Assembly: GCF_050920415.1 (NCBI RefSeq)
Contig: NZ_CP169309.1
Length of the DNA stretch: 64,000 nucleotides
Origin: Escherichia coli
GTDB taxonomy: Bacteria; Pseudomonadota; Gammaproteobacteria; Enterobacterales; Enterobacteriaceae
Reading direction: 5' to 3' (one strand)
Part shown: piece by piece, positions 30,205-38,552 of the stretch
How positions within the stretch are numbered: position 1 is the first letter of the stretch
Layout of the letters: every line of letters starts with the position of its first letter
The notes under the pieces: generated by a model
The model's database searches: none
What the model was told of the DNA's origin: nothing
What the model saw: the letters and a program-made list of their open reading frames with translations, nothing else
Made by a program: the position numbers and the translations under genes

Positions 30205-30507
30205 TTATTTTTTATTCTGATCGCGCAGCATCGCTTCACGTAAAATTGCGTTCAGGCGAGTTTGATAGCCTTTACCTGGTCGCTTCAACCATTCCATCAC
30301 ATCAGCATCAATACGCACCGAAGCCTGAGTTTTCAATGGCCGATAAAACTTACCGCGTTCTGCGTTAGACCATTGCTCATCGCTGGAAGGTGGGATATCA
30401 CTGTAATCAATATCTTCGTCGGATTTATTCGCCAGCGCCTTCAGTTCGGCCTCATGCTGCACATCGAGTGAAGAGGAGGTCCCTCGTTTATGTTTAACCA
30501 TGCTCAT
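30205..30507 (-). CDS. BrnA-like antitoxin (DUF4415/COG3514)
   Basis: 100 aa ORF; the C-terminal pattern YQTRLNAILREAML resembles BrnA-family antitoxins; its start overlaps the stop of a BrnT-like remnant. Confidence 0.6.
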   Translation of the reverse strand: MSMVKHKRGTSSSLDVQHEAELKALANKSDEDIDYSDIPPSSDEQWSNAERGKFYRPLKTQASVRIDADVMEWLKRPGKGYQTRLNAILREAMLRDQNKK

Positions 30508-30623
30508 AGCGGCTCCGTTCGTTGTGGCTCATCAAACACTAACACCGCATCTTCAAAGCGGATGCCATGTTTCACCCGATTACTTTTGGCCTTGTTTGCA
30601 TCCCATTCAAACTCCATTGGCAT
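30504..30623 (-). pseudogene. truncated BrnT-like toxin (DUF497) remnant, 39 codons
   Basis: My own translation of the minus strand gives MPMEFEWDANKAKSNRVKHGIRFEDAVLVFDEPQRTEPL*, which matches only the conserved N-terminus (FEWDxxKxxxNxxKHG..F..A..VF.DP) of roughly 90 aa BrnT toxins. Confidence 0.45.
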
Positions 30624-30819
30624 AGTTGCCATCCCCAATTGTATATACAAAAATGTATCTACAATCATTCTGCAATTATAGCGTTGATGTTGGAAATAGC
30701 ATCACGTTTTGGATAATCAACCATGAAATTGACAATGAGTGAGTTGGACTTGATTCATCCAATAGAATTTCTCGCCTGACATGGCACACTAAACACCTCG
30801 CTGTCGTTAAGGGATTACC

Positions 30820-31986
30820 GTGAAAAACTACAAAGTTATTACTCCGCTTTTTCCTACCTATGCGCAAGTTAAGGCTATGATGAAAGCCGTCTCAGGCTAT
30901 TCCCTGAAAGCGGTACGCAATATGATTACCGCCATTCACGAGCAAACCGGTACGCCGCAAAAACCCGTTGACTGGTCGGAACCTGACCTGTGGATCAGCG
31001 AACGCTTAACGGGTGAAGATGCCGACATCGCCCGTCGTATTTGGGATACCGATAATCACATATTGAACCCGCGCCACAGCTACGGCTGCTACTTATTTCT
31101 CAACTATCCTCAGTTTGAGCTGATGGAAAGCACGCCAGATGATACCTGGCAGCCCACCTCGCGCGGGCAAAAATTCCTGCAAGATGACGAAAAAACGCTG
31201 CGTTCACTGGACGACCAGGAAGGCATTCTGCAACTGCTTGAGCTGCTGGCTGGCCGGGAAATGTCGCGCCGCGCCGATTTATTGCCGGAATGGCAGGCCT
31301 TTTTGCATCAGCATTCGAAATTCGCGTCAGCAAGTTCAGTGAAAAGCACGCTCTACTCCCGTCTCTATAACCTTATCGACCGTGACATGGTTAACCGTGA
31401 AGGCATGAGCTATCGCATCACCGATACCGGGCGCGCCTGGCTTGGAAAAGCGTTGCCTGCACGAAAAAGCGATCCGCGTAAAGAGCTGTTGGAAGCGGTA
31501 AAACGCTATAACGAACAGCAAAAAGAGCTGCTGCGCGAACAAATCAGCACGATGAACCCGTACAAATTTGAGCAACTGGTTGGTCAATTACTGGAAGCAA
31601 TGGGCTACGAACAGGTTGAAGTGACCAAAGCCTCAGGCGACAAAGGTGTGGACGTGATTGGTCAGGTGCAGGTCGGCATCACCACTATTACCGAAGTGGT
31701 GCAGGTCAAAAGAATGCTGAACACTATCACTCGCCCGTATATCGACCAGTTGCGTGGGGCGTTGCCTTACCACAAAGCCATTCGCGGTACGCTCATCACC
31801 ACCGGGAAATTTGCGGCGAAATGTGCAGAAGCGGCGCTCTTTCCGGGTGCCGCGCCCATTACGCTTATCGACGGCGATCGTTTACTGGAACTGTTAATCG
31901 AAAATAACGTCGGCATTCGCCGCAGCAATGCAGTGGAATTGCTGGATGTAGATTTGCAGTTGTTTGATGAGCTGGAGATGGATTAA
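30820..31986 (+). CDS. Mrr-family (Mrr_cat, PD-(D/E)xK) restriction endonuclease with extended N-terminal region
   Basis: The C-terminal 150 aa carry an Mrr catalytic-domain pattern (GDKGVDVIG...EVVQVKR...ITTGKF); 388 aa in total; GTG start, exact start uncertain. Confidence 0.72.
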   Translation: MKNYKVITPLFPTYAQVKAMMKAVSGYSLKAVRNMITAIHEQTGTPQKPVDWSEPDLWISERLTGEDADIARRIWDTDNHILNPRHSYGCYLFLNYPQFELMESTPDDTWQPTSRGQKFLQDDEKTLRSLDDQEGILQLLELLAGREMSRRADLLPEWQAFLHQHSKFASASSVKSTLYSRLYNLIDRDMVNREGMSYRITDTGRAWLGKALPARKSDPRKELLEAVKRYNEQQKELLREQISTMNPYKFEQLVGQLLEAMGYEQVEVTKASGDKGVDVIGQVQVGITTITEVVQVKRMLNTITRPYIDQLRGALPYHKAIRGTLITTGKFAAKCAEAALFPGAAPITLIDGDRLLELLIENNVGIRRSNAVELLDVDLQLFDELEMD

Positions 31987-32049: not shown

Positions 32050-33669
32050 ATGGCCAAAGCACCAACTAAAAAAGCCAAAGCAAAAAAAGGCTTTGAAGAA
32101 ACATTATGGGATACCGCAAACCAGCTTCGCGGTAGCGTTGAATCCTCCGAATACAAGCACGTGGTGTTGAGCCTCGTGTTCCTGAAATTCATCAGCGATA
32201 AGTTTGAAGCACGCCGCAAAAAAATGATTGCCGATGGGCAAGCAGACTTCCTTGAGATGGAAGTGTTCTACCAGCAGGACAACATTTTCTACCTGCCGGA
32301 AGAGGCGCGCTGGTCATTTATCAAACAAAATGCCAAACAGGACGATATTGCGGTCCGTATTGACACCGCCCTCTCGACCATTGAGAAACGTAACCCAACG
32401 CTGAAAGGCGCGCTGCCAGACAACTACTTCAGCCGTCAGAATCTGGAAACCAAAAAACTGGCGTCACTGATTGATACCATCGACAACATCGAAACGCTGG
32501 CACACGAAACTGACGTTGAAACGTTATCGAAAGAAGACCTGGTCGGACGCGTTTACGAATACTTCCTCGGTAAGTTTGCCGCAACTGAAGGCAAAGGCGG
32601 TGGTGAGTTCTACACGCCTAAATGTGTGGTTACGCTGTTAACTGAAATGCTCGAACCCTTTCAGGGCAAAATTTATGACCCGTGCTGCGGCTCGGCAGGG
32701 ATGTTCGTGCAGTCGGTGAAGTTTGTCGAGAGCCATCAGGGTAAAAGTCGTGATATCGCGCTGTATGGTCAGGAACTGACAGCCACGACGTATAAACTGG
32801 CAAAAATGAACCTCGCTATTCGCGGTCTTTCAGCTAACCTCGGCGAACGACCGGCAAACACTTTCTTTAGCGACCAGCACCCGGACCTGAAAGCTGACTA
32901 CATTCTGGCGAACCCGCCGTTCAACCTGAAAGACTGGCGCAATGAAGCCGAATTAACCAAAGACCCACGTTTTGCTGGGTATCGTATGCCGCCAACCGGT
33001 AACGCCAACTACGGCTGGATTTTGCATATGCTCTCCAAGCTGTCGGCTAACGGCACAGCAGGTTTTGTACTGGCAAACGGTTCGATGAGTTCTAACACCA
33101 GCGGCGAAGGCGAGATCCGTGCACAGATGATCGAAAATGATCTGATCGACTGCATGATCGCCCTACCTGGACAGTTGTTTTACACCACGCAGATCCCGGT
33201 GTGTTTATGGTTTATGACCAAATCGAAGGCTGCCGACCCGGCCAAAGGTTATCGTGATCGTCAGGGCGAGACGCTGTTTATTGATGCGCGTAACCTCGGC
33301 ACCATGATTAGCCGCACAACTAAAGAGTTAACAGCGGAAGATATTGCCACAATCGCCGATACTTACCATGCCTGGCGCAGCACGCCGGAAGAACTGGCTG
33401 CACGGATTGCGCGTGGTGACAGCAAGCTGGAAAAATATGAAGACCAGGCTGGCTTCTGCAAAGTTGCGACCCTGCAAGACATTAAAGATAACGGCTACGT
33501 TCTGACACCGGGCCGCTATGTAGGTGCAGCCGAGCAGGAAGAGGACGGCGTGGCATTTGAGACCAAAATGCGTGAATTGTCGAAGACGTTGTTTGAGCAG
33601 ATGAAGCAGGCGGAAGAACTGGATCGTGCGATTCGCCAGAATCTGGAGGCGCTGGGTTATGGGGAGTAA
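32050..33669 (+). CDS. hsdM: Type I restriction-modification system N6-adenine DNA methyltransferase subunit
   Basis: 539 aa with an HsdM N-terminal domain, AdoMet motif DPCCGSAGMF and catalytic motif NPPF. Confidence 0.92.
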   Translation: MAKAPTKKAKAKKGFEETLWDTANQLRGSVESSEYKHVVLSLVFLKFISDKFEARRKKMIADGQADFLEMEVFYQQDNIFYLPEEARWSFIKQNAKQDDIAVRIDTALSTIEKRNPTLKGALPDNYFSRQNLETKKLASLIDTIDNIETLAHETDVETLSKEDLVGRVYEYFLGKFAATEGKGGGEFYTPKCVVTLLTEMLEPFQGKIYDPCCGSAGMFVQSVKFVESHQGKSRDIALYGQELTATTYKLAKMNLAIRGLSANLGERPANTFFSDQHPDLKADYILANPPFNLKDWRNEAELTKDPRFAGYRMPPTGNANYGWILHMLSKLSANGTAGFVLANGSMSSNTSGEGEIRAQMIENDLIDCMIALPGQLFYTTQIPVCLWFMTKSKAADPAKGYRDRQGETLFIDARNLGTMISRTTKELTAEDIATIADTYHAWRSTPEELAARIARGDSKLEKYEDQAGFCKVATLQDIKDNGYVLTPGRYVGAAEQEEDGVAFETKMRELSKTLFEQMKQAEELDRAIRQNLEALGYGE

Positions 33670-34975
33670 GTGGGAAACAGTTAGACTTGGTGATTTAACA
33701 AAGTGGTCATCAGGTGGAACACCTAATAAATCGGAGGATTCATATTGGAATGGTACTATTCCGTGGATTAGCGCGTCCTCTATGGAAGGTCATTTATATA
33801 GCGATTCAAAGCTAAAAATAACTGAAGATGGCTTAATAAATGGCTCTCGACTCGCCCCTGCTAATAGCATTCTTCTTTTAGTAAGAGGCAGTATTCTTCA
33901 TCAAAAAATTCAAGTAGGTTTGGCTACAAAGGCTGTTGCATTTAATCAAGATGTAAAATGTCTCATAGTCAATAATGATATGATTGATCCTTGGTATCTT
34001 TTGCTATGGTTTAAAGCAAAAGAACAAGATCTACTAAAAATAGTAGAAAGCACTGGGATAGGCGCAGGGAAGCTTGACACTAAATTATTAATGGATTACC
34101 CAGTTGAAATTCCACCAAAAGAGATTAAAGAATATATCCGTTTTTTGGGGAAAGCGATTTTTGATAAAATAACGCTCAACGAAAATATAAACTATAATTT
34201 GGAAAAAATGTCCCAAACCTTGTTCAAATCCTGGTTTGTGGATTTTGATCCGGTGATTGATAACGCTCTGGATGTCGGAAATCAAATCCCGGAAGCCCTG
34301 CAAGCTCGTGCCGAATTGCGTCAAAAAGTACGTAATAGTGCAGATTTCAAACCACTTCCGACGGAAATCCGCTCGCTTTTCCCAAGTGAATTTGAAGAAA
34401 CGGAGTTAGGTTGGGTACCAAAAGGTTGGGAAATTGGAAAACTTCAAGACTTACTTATTTTACAAAGAGGATTTGATCTTCCTTCTACCCAAAGAAATAT
34501 CGGTTTACACCCAATAATAGCTGCTAGTGGCTATAATGGCACACATGACATCGCAATGGTGAAAGCCCCTGGGATTGTTACTGGCCGCTCTGGTGTATTA
34601 GGTAATGTTTTCCTAATCCTTGAAGACTTCTGGCCTCTGAATACAACGTTGTGGGTAAAAGAGCTAAAACATGCTACACCATGTTACGGATATGAGTTAC
34701 TTAAAATGATAGATTTCTCTTCATTTAATGGCGGTTCAGCTGTTCCAACATTAAACCGTAATCATATTCACAATTTGGATTACTTGCTTCCACCAAGAAA
34801 TTTAATTGAGAAATTTGAGTTATTTTCTATGTCGTTATATAGACAAGTTCACGAATTCAAAAAACAAGCCCAAACCCTAACAGCCCTCCGCGACACCCTG
34901 CTCCCGAAACTCATCTCCGGCGAGCTATCCCTGGAAGATCTTCCGGATCTCAGCACCGATACAGAAGCTGCATAA
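33659..34975 (+). CDS. hsdS: Type I restriction-modification specificity subunit with two target recognition domains
   Basis: The ATG overlaps the hsdM stop by 11 bp; the region is AT-rich; two variable regions are separated by a conserved central segment and followed by a conserved C-terminal region. Confidence 0.88.
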   Translation: MGSKWETVRLGDLTKWSSGGTPNKSEDSYWNGTIPWISASSMEGHLYSDSKLKITEDGLINGSRLAPANSILLLVRGSILHQKIQVGLATKAVAFNQDVKCLIVNNDMIDPWYLLLWFKAKEQDLLKIVESTGIGAGKLDTKLLMDYPVEIPPKEIKEYIRFLGKAIFDKITLNENINYNLEKMSQTLFKSWFVDFDPVIDNALDVGNQIPEALQARAELRQKVRNSADFKPLPTEIRSLFPSEFEETELGWVPKGWEIGKLQDLLILQRGFDLPSTQRNIGLHPIIAASGYNGTHDIAMVKAPGIVTGRSGVLGNVFLILEDFWPLNTTLWVKELKHATPCYGYELLKMIDFSSFNGGSAVPTLNRNHIHNLDYLLPPRNLIEKFELFSMSLYRQVHEFKKQAQTLTALRDTLLPKLISGELSLEDLPDLSTDTEAA

Positions 34976-34983
34976 CGCATTTT

Positions 34984-35003
34984 GCCCCTGTAAAATCAGG
35001 GGC
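34984..35003 (+). terminator. hairpin (GCCCCTG-TAAAAT-CAGGGGC) followed by TTTCT between hsdS and hsdR
   Basis: Read directly in the 94 bp gap; it may be a partial terminator or attenuator separating the hsdMS and hsdR transcription units. Confidence 0.3.
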
Positions 35004-35069
35004 TTTCTGGTAAGGTTTTCTACTGATACGGGAATGCTTACCAGAAATTAGCCAGGGTTGGAGCGCGAT

Positions 35070-38000
35070 ATGAGTCTCTCTTTCAGTGAAGCAAAATTAG
35101 AACAAGCGATCATTGAACTGTTACAGGATCAGGGATATCAACACCTGATCGGCGATAATGTCCCACGTTCAAGTCTCGATCAGGTCATTATCGAAGACGA
35201 TCTCCGTCATTATTTAGCGGCACGCTACCAGCCTGATGGCATTACTGAAGAAGAGATTCAGCGACTGATCAAACAGTTCACCACGCTCCCCGCTTCCGAT
35301 CTTTATGAAAGCAACAAAACATTTTGTCGCTGGCTGGCAAATGGTTTTCTGTTCAAACGCGACGATCGGCAACAAAAAGATCTCTATATTGAATTGCTCG
35401 ACACCCGGCATCTACCTGCCGCACTGCGCCAGATATTTGACGCCGAAGATGTCCCGTTGCAACAGGCGGCGGAACTCCCGCCCTCCTATATTAATCCGCC
35501 GCTTAACCGGATTAAGATTGTTAACCAGCTTAAAATCTCCGGTAAAGATAATCAGACTCGTATTCCTGACGGCATTCTCTATATCAACGGTCTGCCACTG
35601 GTCGTCTTTGAATTTAAAAGTGCGGTGCGCGAGCAGGATGCCAGTATTGGCGATGCCTGGAAGCAGCTCTGTAAACGCTATCGCCGGGATATTCCGCAAC
35701 TGTTTATCTACAACGCGCTCTGCATTATTAGCGATGGCGTAAATAACCGGATGGGCAACCTGTTTGCGCCCTATGAATACTTTTACTCATGGCGCAAAGT
35801 CACCGGTAATGAAAACCGTGAACAGGACGGAATTCCGTCATTGCACTCAATGATTCAGGGGCTGTTTCATCCGGTACGTCTGCTGGATGTGATTAAAAAC
35901 TTTATCTGCTTCCCGGATAAAGCCAGGCACGAAGTAAAAATTTGCTGCCGATATCCGCAGTACTATGCCGCCCGCAAACTCTATTACAGCATCAAGCAAG
36001 CGCGTAAACCTTTCGGTAGCGGTAAAGGCGGCACCTACTTTGGCGCAACGGGCTGTGGCAAAAGTTACACCATGCAATTTTTAACGCGTCTTTTGATGAA
36101 GAGCGTGGAGTTTGCCAGCCCGACCATTGTTTTGATCACCGACCGCACCGATCTGGACGATCAGCTTTCTGCGCAAATGTGCAATGCCAAAAATTACATT
36201 GGCGACGACACCATCGTTCCTGTTACCAGCCGTGAAGATTTGCGTAATCAACTGGCGGGACGCAATAGTGGCGGTGTATTCCTGACAACGATCCATAAAT
36301 TCACCGAAGACACCGAACTCCTTTCTGAACGCAGCAATATCATTTGCATCTCGGACGAAGCACATCGCAGCCAGGTTAACCTCGACCAGAAAGTCATCGT
36401 CGATAAAGAAAGCGGAAAAGTGCGCAAAACTTATGGCTTTGCGAAATACCTGCACGATTCACTGCCAAACGCCACCTATGTTGGCTTTACCGGCACACCG
36501 ATTGACGCGACGCTCGATGTCTTCGGTGAGGTGATCGACAGTTACACCATGACCGAATCCGTTCAGGATGAAATCACTGTACGCATCGTGTACGAAGGCC
36601 GTGCGGCTAAAGTGATCCTGGACTCCAGCAAACTGGAAGAAGTCGAAAAGTATTACGAAGAGTGCGCAAACGCAGGCACCAATGAGTGGCAAATCGACGA
36701 AAGCAAGAAAGCCACGGCTACCATGAATGCGGTTCTGGGTGATGAAGATCGGTTAAAAGCCCTCGCGGAAGATTTTGCTAAACATTATGAAAAACGCGTA
36801 GCCGAAGGTTCCACCGTAAAAGGCAAAGCCATGTTTGTTTGCACCAGCCGTGAAATTGCCTGGGATTTCTACCGCCAGCTTAAAGCTATTCGCCCTGCCT
36901 GGTTTGAAGTGAAGCAAGCCCCCGATGGCGTCGTCCTGACGGAACAGGAGCAGAAAGAGTTACCGCCTTCAGAAATGGTGAAGATGGTCATGACGCGCGG
37001 TAAAGATGACGACGAGGCGCTTTATGATTTACTGGGCACAAAAGAATATCGTAAAGAGCTGGATAAGCAGTTCAAAAACGCTAAATCGAATTTCAAAATT
37101 GCCATTGTCGTTGATATGTGGCTGACCGGTTTCGACGTTCCTGAACTGGATACTATCTATATTGATAAACCCTTACAAAAACATAACCTTATCCAGACCA
37201 TTTCTCGCGTTAACCGTAAACTGGAAGGCAAAAGTAAAGGGTTAGTGGTGGACTATATCGGCATTAAGAGTCAGATGAACCAGGCACTGGCAATGTATTC
37301 CCGCATTGATGCCACCAACTTTGAAGATATTCAGCAATCGGTAATAGAAGTTAAAAACCATCTCGATTTGTTGGGGCAAGTCTTTTACGAATTTGACAGT
37401 CGGGATTATTTTAGTGGTGAGCCGCAAGCGCAATTATCCTGCCTCAACCGCGCGGCGGAATTCGTTCTGAGTACCCAGAAAGTTGAACGTCGTTTTATGG
37501 GACTGGTTAAACGCATGAAAGCCGCCTACGACGTCTGCTGCGGCAGCGAAGCATTATCACAGACAGAACGTGACTATATTCACTATTATCTTGCTGTTCG
37601 TTCAATTGTTTTCAAACTGACGAAAGGTGACGCACCGGATGTTACCCAGATGAATGCACGCGTTCGCGAAATGATTGCAGAAGCGTTAAAAGCTGATGGC
37701 GTAGAAGAGATTTATTTTCTTGGCGATAAAAAAGCGGAATCCATCGATATTTTTGACGAAGATTATCTGGCGCGAATTAACAAGATCAAACTTCCGGCAA
37801 CGAAGATCCAGTTATTACAAAAATTACTGGAAAAAGCAATCAGCGACTTCAAGAAAGTGAACCAGTTGCAAGGGATTAACTTCACCCGCCGCTTCCAGGC
37901 GATTATAGATCGTTATAATGAGCGGCGAGAAGATGATGTACTCAACGGTGAAGAATTCGATACATTCAGTCAGGAAATGACCGATATTATCTATGATATT

Positions 38001-38372
38001 AAAACCGAAATGGGCACCTGGGCCGACTTAGGCATTGATATTGAAGAAAAAGCCTTTTTCGACATTCTTGCTCATATGCGCGATAAATATCAGTTCACCT
38101 ATGACGATGAAAAAATGCTGTCACTGGCAAAAGAGATGAAAAGCGTGGTTGACAACACATCGAAATATCCTGACTGGAGTAAACGCGATGATATTAAAGC
38201 GAAACTGAAAGTTGAACTTATTCTGCTTCTACACAAGCATAAGTTCCCGCCAGTAGCGAATGATGATGTTTATATGGGTGTGCTGGCACAGGCAGAGAAT
38301 TTTAAAGAACATCATATGAGTGCTTTAAATTACTATGAACGCCGGATACACTTTGTTATCCGGCCATTGTGA
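35070..38372 (+). CDS. hsdR: Type I restriction enzyme R subunit (SF2 helicase/translocase plus endonuclease)
   Basis: About 1100 aa with an N-terminal HsdR domain and DEAD-box-like helicase motifs (GTGKS-type Walker A, DEAH-like box); GGAG Shine-Dalgarno before the ATG at 35070. Confidence 0.9.
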   Translation: MSLSFSEAKLEQAIIELLQDQGYQHLIGDNVPRSSLDQVIIEDDLRHYLAARYQPDGITEEEIQRLIKQFTTLPASDLYESNKTFCRWLANGFLFKRDDRQQKDLYIELLDTRHLPAALRQIFDAEDVPLQQAAELPPSYINPPLNRIKIVNQLKISGKDNQTRIPDGILYINGLPLVVFEFKSAVREQDASIGDAWKQLCKRYRRDIPQLFIYNALCIISDGVNNRMGNLFAPYEYFYSWRKVTGNENREQDGIPSLHSMIQGLFHPVRLLDVIKNFICFPDKARHEVKICCRYPQYYAARKLYYSIKQARKPFGSGKGGTYFGATGCGKSYTMQFLTRLLMKSVEFASPTIVLITDRTDLDDQLSAQMCNAKNYIGDDTIVPVTSREDLRNQLAGRNSGGVFLTTIHKFTEDTELLSERSNIICISDEAHRSQVNLDQKVIVDKESGKVRKTYGFAKYLHDSLPNATYVGFTGTPIDATLDVFGEVIDSYTMTESVQDEITVRIVYEGRAAKVILDSSKLEEVEKYYEECANAGTNEWQIDESKKATATMNAVLGDEDRLKALAEDFAKHYEKRVAEGSTVKGKAMFVCTSREIAWDFYRQLKAIRPAWFEVKQAPDGVVLTEQEQKELPPSEMVKMVMTRGKDDDEALYDLLGTKEYRKELDKQFKNAKSNFKIAIVVDMWLTGFDVPELDTIYIDKPLQKHNLIQTISRVNRKLEGKSKGLVVDYIGIKSQMNQALAMYSRIDATNFEDIQQSVIEVKNHLDLLGQVFYEFDSRDYFSGEPQAQLSCLNRAAEFVLSTQKVERRFMGLVKRMKAAYDVCCGSEALSQTERDYIHYYLAVRSIVFKLTKGDAPDVTQMNARVREMIAEALKADGVEEIYFLGDKKAESIDIFDEDYLARINKIKLPATKIQLLQKLLEKAISDFKKVNQLQGINFTRRFQAIIDRYNERREDDVLNGEEFDTFSQEMTDIIYDIKTEMGTWADLGIDIEEKAFFDILAHMRDKYQFTYDDEKMLSLAKEMKSVVDNTSKYPDWSKRDDIKAKLKVELILLLHKHKFPPVANDDVYMGVLAQAENFKEHHMSALNYYERRIHFVIRPL

Positions 38373-38444
38373 ATTAACGTTAATTTCTCTTCCAGATATC
38401 TCCAGTAACGCTTTTATTATTTTCTATTTTTAGCTGGACTTTCC

Positions 38445-38469
38445 CTGTATTTACTGATGATATGTCCAG
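38445..38469 (+). promoter_or_regulatory. candidate LexA operator(s) in the symE promoter
   Basis: CTG-N10-CAG arrangement (CTGATGATATGTCCAG) overlapping CTGTATTTACTG about 80-100 bp upstream of symE; symE is a known SOS gene. The match to the CTGT-N8-ACAG consensus is imperfect. Confidence 0.3.
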
Positions 38470-38475
38470 GTATTT

Positions 38476-38552
38476 AGCGCGGTGCGGATGTGCGCCAACA
38501 CACCCGCACCGCTAATCACAATCCCTATTTCTAAGGAATAGTAATCATGACT
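38476..38552 (-). ncRNA. symR: SymR antisense sRNA (type I antitoxin of SymE), approximate placement
   Basis: Placed by recalled K-12 biology (about 77 nt, antisense to the symE 5' UTR and start codon). A 9 bp stem, GCGGTGCGG at 38477-38485 pairing with CCGCACCGC at 38504-38512, is visible in this interval. The ends are not determined from sequence. Confidence 0.3.

Follow-up and report, generated by a model that had tools for sequence, protein, structure and literature searches.

The immigration control region (ICR) of Escherichia coli K-12 holds mrr, hsdRMS, symE and mcrBC in a single interval. In the 64,000-nucleotide stretch of E. coli DNA analysed here (contig NZ_CP169309.1, assembly GCF_050920415.1; referred to as the window), the same region carries, between yjiA/brnA and hsdM, a gene for a protein that ends in an Mrr-type nuclease domain (Table 1). 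Is this protein K-12 Mrr with a mis-called start, or a different enzyme that selects its target in a different way? An earlier note on the window had described an Mrr-catalytic protein with an unusually long N-terminal region and a doubtful GTG start, and had suggested that it could be a distinct enzyme with a different sensor domain. Alignments placed the protein within the Mrr catalytic family but not among the orthologues of the K-12 enzyme (EcoKMrr). It is probably a Type IV-like restriction nuclease that works alone and has a reader module of its own kind.

Mrr of K-12 (b4351) has 304 amino acids, with Mrr_N at residues 6–91 (E = 9e-20) and Mrr_cat at 164–281. With BLASTP, only residues 216–383 of the window protein aligned with it (30% identity, E = 1e-18), and a profile–profile comparison aligned only residues 221–383. 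The claim that the first 230 residues are unlike K-12 Mrr was therefore correct for residues 1–215, but not beyond, where the linker helix begins. No significant Pfam match, including Mrr_N (PF14338), was obtained before residue 243, and NCBIfam gave no match for the N-terminal half. A comparison of the N-terminal domains with the N-termini of K-12-type Mrr proteins in hhalign returned probabilities of 8–12%, covering only a short wing motif, G-x-W-x-(L/I)-T-x-x-G. One distant fusion protein with the same N-terminal module matched Mrr_N at E = 0.013, and homology of domain 1 or domain 2 to Mrr_N is possible. Since both the Mrr_N match and full-length similarity were lacking, and with 388 rather than about 304 amino acids, the protein was not assigned to the EcoKMrr orthologues.

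The start codon could be fixed from the reading frame and from conservation. An in-frame TAA at 30808–30810, three codons upstream, bars a longer open reading frame (ORF) and makes the GTG at 30820 the first possible start. In an alignment of 30 homologues, ranging from Enterobacteriaceae to Chloroflexi and including Halomonadaceae, P9 and Y14 were invariant and K5 and P12 were at least 90% conserved. Because these N-terminal residues are conserved across phyla, a mis-called upstream start is ruled out; on these grounds the GTG start is secure, contrary to the earlier doubt. An internal ATG at codon 21, also with a Shine-Dalgarno-like motif, was rejected, as its use would remove conserved residues in a confident AlphaFold2 helix. 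K-12 Mrr with a mis-called start was likewise rejected, given the upstream TAA, the conservation of residues 5–14 and the absence of similarity to K-12 Mrr before residue 216.

AlphaFold2 modelled the full protein with a predicted local distance difference test score (pLDDT) of 83, and residues 1–135 with a pLDDT of 90.7 and a predicted template modelling score of 0.83. In the model, residues 1–215 are predicted with high confidence to form two winged-helix-like domains, and the N-terminal half is predicted to bind DNA. The core of domain 1 consists of helices at residues 55–62, 65–76 and 84–94 and a hairpin at 102–112. It is preceded by a near-invariant loop, Q42-x-G-T-P-Q-x-P-V-D-W52 (Q42, G44, T45, P46, Q47, P49, V50, D51 and W52), and the invariant N83-P84-R85 marks where the third helix is predicted to start. 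The loop region QTGTPQxPVDWSxP (residues 42–55; 30943–30984) was the most conserved stretch of the protein and exceeded the catalytic motif region. No Pfam family matched domain 1, and no solved structure was related to it in sequence; the profile search against the PDB gave only spurious Hook3 matches. Domain 2 had weak Pfam matches to HVO_A0261_N (residues 151–208, E = 0.012) and HTH_45, a weak PHROG match to a transcription regulator (174–210), and Foldseek matches to PadR and the cullin WHB domain. The nearest folds for the reader were winged-helix DNA binders and the recognition domain of FokI, with the recognition domain of BpuJI added for the full model. In overall layout, the full model matched FokI, N.BspD6I and BpuJI, each of which has several winged-helix domains for recognition.

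The C-terminal Mrr_cat pattern claimed in the earlier note was evident in Pfam, where the Mrr_cat profile (PF04471) was covered at model positions 2–115 of 115. D278, Q295 and K297 aligned with D203, Q219 and K221 of K-12 Mrr, and the Mrr_cat site is given as PD-QxK in a recent EcoSal review (PMC12707154). The D...QxK residues, whose absence would have counted against the proposal of the earlier note, were present and, together with E251 in the first helix of Mrr_cat, did not vary among the 30 aligned sequences; on this basis the nuclease appears to be active. The best solved-structure matches for this half were MspJI and AspBHI (Foldseek E = 1e-7 to 3e-5), with a weak sequence match to 4f0p.

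What the N-terminal module may do is indicated by the other proteins that contain it. A profile of residues 1–135 found only 376 clusters among 1.84 billion representatives. In one protein (P0141), a region corresponding to both reader domains (positions 5–219 of the PADLOC PDC-S02 model) stands before AAA_5 and McrB_lid domains, and a McrC gene follows immediately. At locus L010 (949–4207), the full module stands before a McrB-type GTPase, and mcrC and an Eco57I-type gene come next. Other proteins have the module fused to GmrSD_N or GmrSD-like parts, including a GmrSD-like ORF of a Chloroflexi metagenome-assembled genome (MAG) with domain 1 inside it (L064 2631–5084), to DUF1524 (A0A3D1TPC2 in the AlphaFold Database, AFDB), to an NsnA-like nuclease (P0162) or to a KAP NTPase. 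Forms of approximately 480 amino acids have a HARE-HTH domain ahead of the module (P0120). The module is common to other Type IV effectors, namely a McrB-type AAA_5 protein with an adjacent McrC gene and the GmrSD_N/DUF1524 proteins, and is shuffled among them. Its place before a McrB-type GTPase and GmrSD-type domains is the pattern expected of a Type IV sensor domain. We consider it a reader, because target choice in McrBC falls to the N-terminal domain of McrB, whose place the module takes. The tandem module replaces the N-terminal reader of McrB and is also fused to GmrSD-type domains; unlike McrBC and GmrSD, the window protein couples it to an NTP-independent Mrr_cat nuclease in one polypeptide. 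The suggestion of a distinct enzyme with a different sensor domain thus gained support, with the sensing of modifications suggested by the architecture.

The gene is neither rare nor exceptional in its length. Of 5426 complete E. coli genomes, 880 (about one in six) had it, as a single copy on the chromosome; examples are Nissle 1917, ATCC 25922, an ST131 strain and avian pathogenic E. coli (APEC) strains. K-12-type mrr was present in 952 of the 5426. Among the best 120 of 901 database matches, homologues were mostly 370–410 amino acids long with full-length coverage, down to 51% identity. A species survey with one genome per species and a single peptide pattern gave 54 loci, from Enterobacterales, Gilliamella, Halomonadaceae, Alphaproteobacteria, Deltaproteobacteria, Bacteroidota, Gemmatimonadota, Chloroflexi, a Firmicute and one Thorarchaeota MAG. 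The order domain 1, domain 2, Mrr_cat was found in 53 of them. The N-terminal region is hence not "unusually long", as an architecture of approximately 390 amino acids is conserved across many phyla and is about as frequent in E. coli as K-12-type mrr. The full-architecture homologue in the Thorarchaeota MAG (L053 6546–7703) reflects lateral transfer or a binning artefact. A tblastn search with residues 1–215 yielded only three plasmid records and one "phage" record, the latter a 501-kb Salmonella scaffold; carriage on mobile elements was rejected on these few records, leaving the chromosome as essentially the only location of the gene. In many E. coli sequences only a fragment is encoded, for example of 244 (133 member sequences), 226 or 206 amino acids (P0072, P0074, P0077, P0116; AFDB B7MMP1 of E. 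coli S88). The fragment alleles hint that the gene has been inactivated repeatedly in some lineages, which would be expected of a Type IV enzyme in conflict with newly acquired methyltransferases.

Several known enzymes share parts of this design. EcoKMrr has the same Mrr_cat domain with D...QxK and the same layout of an N-terminal DNA-binding part, a helical linker and a C-terminal nuclease. It is likewise encoded by a single solitary gene at the yjiA end of the ICR, adjoining a Type I system. In contrast, the window protein has two predicted winged-helix-like domains (215 amino acids) where EcoKMrr has one (about 90 amino acids), its N-terminal sequence is unrelated, and its gene is co-directional with hsdM, whereas that of EcoKMrr is divergent from hsdR. 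MspJI and AspBHI follow the same principle of modification-dependent enzymes, a reader domain plus Mrr_cat, but their readers are SRA-like and the present one is predicted to be winged-helix-like. Winged-helix readers also occur with different nuclease folds in the fusion endonucleases that read N6-methyladenine (DpnI, HhiV4I, FcyTI and others; PMC11037411). The same paper mentions a fusion of winged helix, Mrr_cat and NTPase, and its winged-helix fusions exemplify the combinatorial pattern of Type IV sensors that the present module also shows.

The protein is covered by earlier records. It matched PADLOC model PDLC04796 of PDC-S02 over its full length (residues 1–386, E = 2.2e-206). PDC-S02 is a catalogue label for a candidate phage defence without a described mechanism, and its other hidden Markov models match the nuclease half only. 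The PDC systems are 145 untested candidates that were chosen because their genes lie inside BREX, DISARM or Type I systems (bioRxiv 10.1101/2024.01.29.577857). From Pseudomonas aeruginosa, a study reports no more than a statistical association with the number of prophages. For APEC O1, 536 and UTI89, the Eco94GmrSD paper (PMC4437046) gives an ICR of this kind, with a transposase, an endoribonuclease, hsdS/M/R, "Mrr" and a GTPase; because APEC strains carry the present gene, this "Mrr" is presumably the same gene. Type ID, GmrSD and "Mrr" were counted in ICRs in the 2025 EcoSal review (PMC12707154), in which the types of Mrr were not separated. In the literature on PDC-S02, ICR Mrr, Nissle Mrr and winged-helix Mrr architectures, no description of the N-terminal module and no test of the protein were found.

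The explanation that we favour is a Type IV-like nuclease that acts alone. The reader (residues 1–215) would bind DNA through its two winged-helix-like domains and would discriminate a feature absent from host DNA; the likeliest candidate is a base modification or hypermodification distinct from Dam, Dcm and resident Type I methylation. The PD-QxK nuclease (residues 243–359) would then cut nearby; going by EcoKMrr and MspJI, its acting form is probably a dimer or a tetramer. No partner methyltransferase would be needed, and the gene would be an interchangeable defence cassette in the ICR, beside a Type I system other than Type IA and a GmrSD-type enzyme. That the winged helices bind DNA and that the enzyme depends on modification is inferred, as are its target and its oligomeric state. 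Dependence on modification is argued from the fact that an intact nuclease without an obligatory methyltransferase must spare the DNA of its host. As E. coli hosts have Dam, Dcm and a Type I methylation of their own, the target should be something else. Four points weigh against this explanation. The closest fold match, FokI, reads sequence and not modification; no published cleavage, modification dependence or restriction of phages or plasmids was found for this family of homologues; and the neighbourhood survey used a small probe set, which may miss other methyltransferase types. Furthermore, one PDC-S02 representative, which may belong to another sub-family, does not figure among the candidates found to protect E. 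coli B from T4, T5 or T7 (bioRxiv 10.1101/2024.09.26.614923).

That same lack of protection against the three phages would suit a nuclease that is switched on conditionally or by stress and reads no modifications. Its double winged helix would hold the protein on the nucleoid or sense a phage protein or DNA structure, and activation would lead to broad DNA damage, as in abortive infection or in the pressure-induced, methylation-independent activity of EcoKMrr. EcoKMrr indeed has a second, modification-independent activation via an oligomeric switch (PMC12707154), and the module also precedes NTPases (KAP, AAA+) typical of sensor–effector defence proteins. Nothing in the sequence suggests a protein-sensing domain, however, and the most informative fusions are classical Type IV machines with an N-terminal target reader (McrB with adjacent McrC, and GmrSD). 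We consider this alternative unlikely, though the best of the remaining ones.

The setting of the gene raises the question of whether it instead serves the adjacent Type I system as an accessory, in one transcript with hsdMSR; it could then be a second nuclease or a regulator that depends on HsdM/S/R. The earlier note had stated that it is co-directional with hsdM; the start of hsdM lies 63 bp downstream, and no terminator-like site was found on the plus strand between them. Since the counts in the promoter and terminator scan were not above chance, firm evidence for an operon is absent. Neighbourhoods were searched with hand-made probes for HsdM/S/R, one C5 methyltransferase, one Eco57I-type enzyme, McrBC, GmrSD and BREX. 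A match to a Type I component was found within 10 kb at 23 of the 54 species loci, two of them weak or atypical, and 10 of 11 Enterobacterales representatives directly adjoined a Type I system. PDC candidates are, moreover, defined by being embedded in such systems. The adjacent systems nevertheless varied in order, orientation and similarity. The gene stands before hsdM-S-R in the window and in several Enterobacteriaceae, before hsdR-M-S in other Enterobacterales, and after hsdR-hsdS-TIR-hsdM in Kushneria; it converges on hsdR in Serratia and diverges from hsdR on a metagenome contig. Together with the approximately 29 of 54 species loci that had no probed partner within 10 kb, a homologue after BREX genes in Modicisalibacter and one among housekeeping genes in a Chloroflexi genome count against an accessory role. 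K-12 mrr has a similar neighbourhood without known functional coupling. Within this limited query set, Type I systems are frequent but not obligatory neighbours and no methyltransferase is consistently linked; dependence on the Type I system is improbable. Two of the neighbouring systems contained additional genes, a TIR_2-domain gene between hsdS and hsdM in Kushneria (L005 4520–5482) and a PemK toxin between hsdM and hsdS (L008 1736–2065).

Slightly less probable still is a sequence-specific, Type II or IIS-like endonuclease, in which the tandem winged helices would read sequence as in FokI and BpuJI and the host would be guarded by an unlinked methyltransferase. The recognition domains of FokI, N.BspD6I and BpuJI are among the best fold matches of the reader. 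The similarity is weak, though, the nuclease belongs to a different family, and no cognate methyltransferase was recognised: the only one near the window gene is the Type I HsdM, and homologues occur without probed methyltransferases nearby. Least probable of all is that the gene is a relic that has decayed or lost catalysis, or that it encodes a DNA-binding regulator of the kind seen in the NA-iREase1 family; the support for this (a secondary Pfam match to this "inactive REase" (restriction endonuclease) family at E = 9e-13, the truncated E. coli alleles, and the reported apparent inactivity of Salmonella enterica Mrr-LT2, PMC3152355) stands against an intact ORF, a far better Mrr_cat score, the same secondary match in K-12 Mrr, the invariant catalytic residues and a mean column identity of 64% over the whole length of the 30-sequence alignment.

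The coordinates of the gene, of its parts and of the neighbouring features are compiled in Table 1. The identical span is annotated as WP_000800827.1 in NZ_CP169399.1, from which the window differed at 2 of 29,451 bases. The local gene order is btsT, yjiX, yjiA, brnA, a truncated brnT pseudogene, the nuclease gene, hsdM, hsdS, hsdR, symE, a GmrSD-type gene on the minus strand, yjiS and yjiR.

Table 1. Coordinates in the window of the nuclease gene, its encoded domains and neighbouring features.
Feature	Position	Strand	Description
Nuclease gene	30820–31986	+	Complete coding sequence, 388 amino acids plus stop, GTG start; RefSeq WP_000800827.1 "restriction endonuclease"
Domain 1	30820–31224	+	Residues 1–135; two N-terminal helices, near-invariant loop, divergent winged-helix core (predicted)
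Domain 2	31225–31464	+	Residues 136–215; predicted second winged helix; helices 136–144, 151–165, 171–187, 202–211; hairpin 191–200; AlphaFold2
Linker	31465–31545	+	Residues 216–242; one long predicted helix (219–244) joining reader and nuclease; aligns with the K-12 Mrr linker region
Mrr_cat PD-(D/E)XK nuclease domain	31546–31896	+	Residues 243–359; Pfam E = 4.4e-28
Catalytic codons	D278 31651–31653; Q295 31702–31704; K297 31708–31710	+	From alignment with K-12 Mrr
C-terminal tail	31897–31983	+	Residues 360–388; two short strands; aligns with the K-12 Mrr C-terminus
Shine-Dalgarno-like AAGGGA	30809–30814	+	Ends 5–6 nt before the GTG; overlapped by the in-frame TAA; read from sequence
Two weak sigma-70-like promoter matches	30626–30717	+	In the 196-bp upstream spacer; 2 found, 2.5 expected; candidates only
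brnA antitoxin gene	30205–30507	-	Intact
Truncated brnT toxin pseudogene	30522–30623	-	Beside brnA
Type I system hsdM-hsdS-hsdR	32050–38372		HsdM 24% identical to EcoKI HsdM
GmrSD-type ORF	38935–41028	-	Intact, 697 amino acids; PADLOC Orf5/HEC-06 models at residues 1–552; PDC-S18-like part at 583–691

Directly upstream of the nuclease gene and divergent from it, brnA is an orphan antitoxin (30205–30623 with the brnT remnant). Because of the low identity of its HsdM to that of EcoKI, the neighbouring Type I system is, by this measure, not of Type IA; by elimination with the ICR statistics of the EcoSal review it is probably Type ID. The G+C content was 0.40–0.42 over hsdS and the 3' end of hsdR (33500–35000 and 37000–38500), compared to approximately 0.50–0.52 for the nuclease gene and hsdM, which suggests a mosaic origin of the Type I cassette. 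In the near-identical RefSeq record, the span of the GmrSD-type ORF is annotated as a 388-amino-acid coding sequence and a "DUF262 pseudogene", yet the frame has no stop; the split looks like an annotation artefact.

Modularity itself was to be expected, as Type IV enzymes are known to be modular; what is new is a distinct, uncatalogued tandem winged-helix reader, as predicted here. Tentatively, residues 1–215, and especially domain 1 with its GTPQxPVDW loop and NPR(H/Y) motif, might be an undescribed family of DNA-modification readers that is used by at least three classes of Type IV effectors (Mrr_cat, McrBC and GmrSD). Such a family, for which domain 1 has neither a Pfam model nor a solved relative, might have a specificity unlike that of the known winged-helix, SRA, EVE and YTH readers, for example for a phage hypermodification or a foreign methylation pattern. 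The label "restriction endonuclease" in databases and the name "Mrr" in one paper hide this different target-reading half, in a gene that E. coli carries about as often as the textbook mrr and that is present in strains of practical importance (the probiotic Nissle 1917, the reference strain ATCC 25922, an ST131 strain and avian pathogenic strains). As a tool, the module could extend the range of specificities among modification-dependent enzymes. If the reader family is real, it would constitute a common, unrecognised restriction barrier in Nissle 1917, ATCC 25922, ST131 and APEC strains, and if a particular modification is restricted, this would be a testable barrier to transformation of and conjugation into the carrier strains, and to phage therapy.

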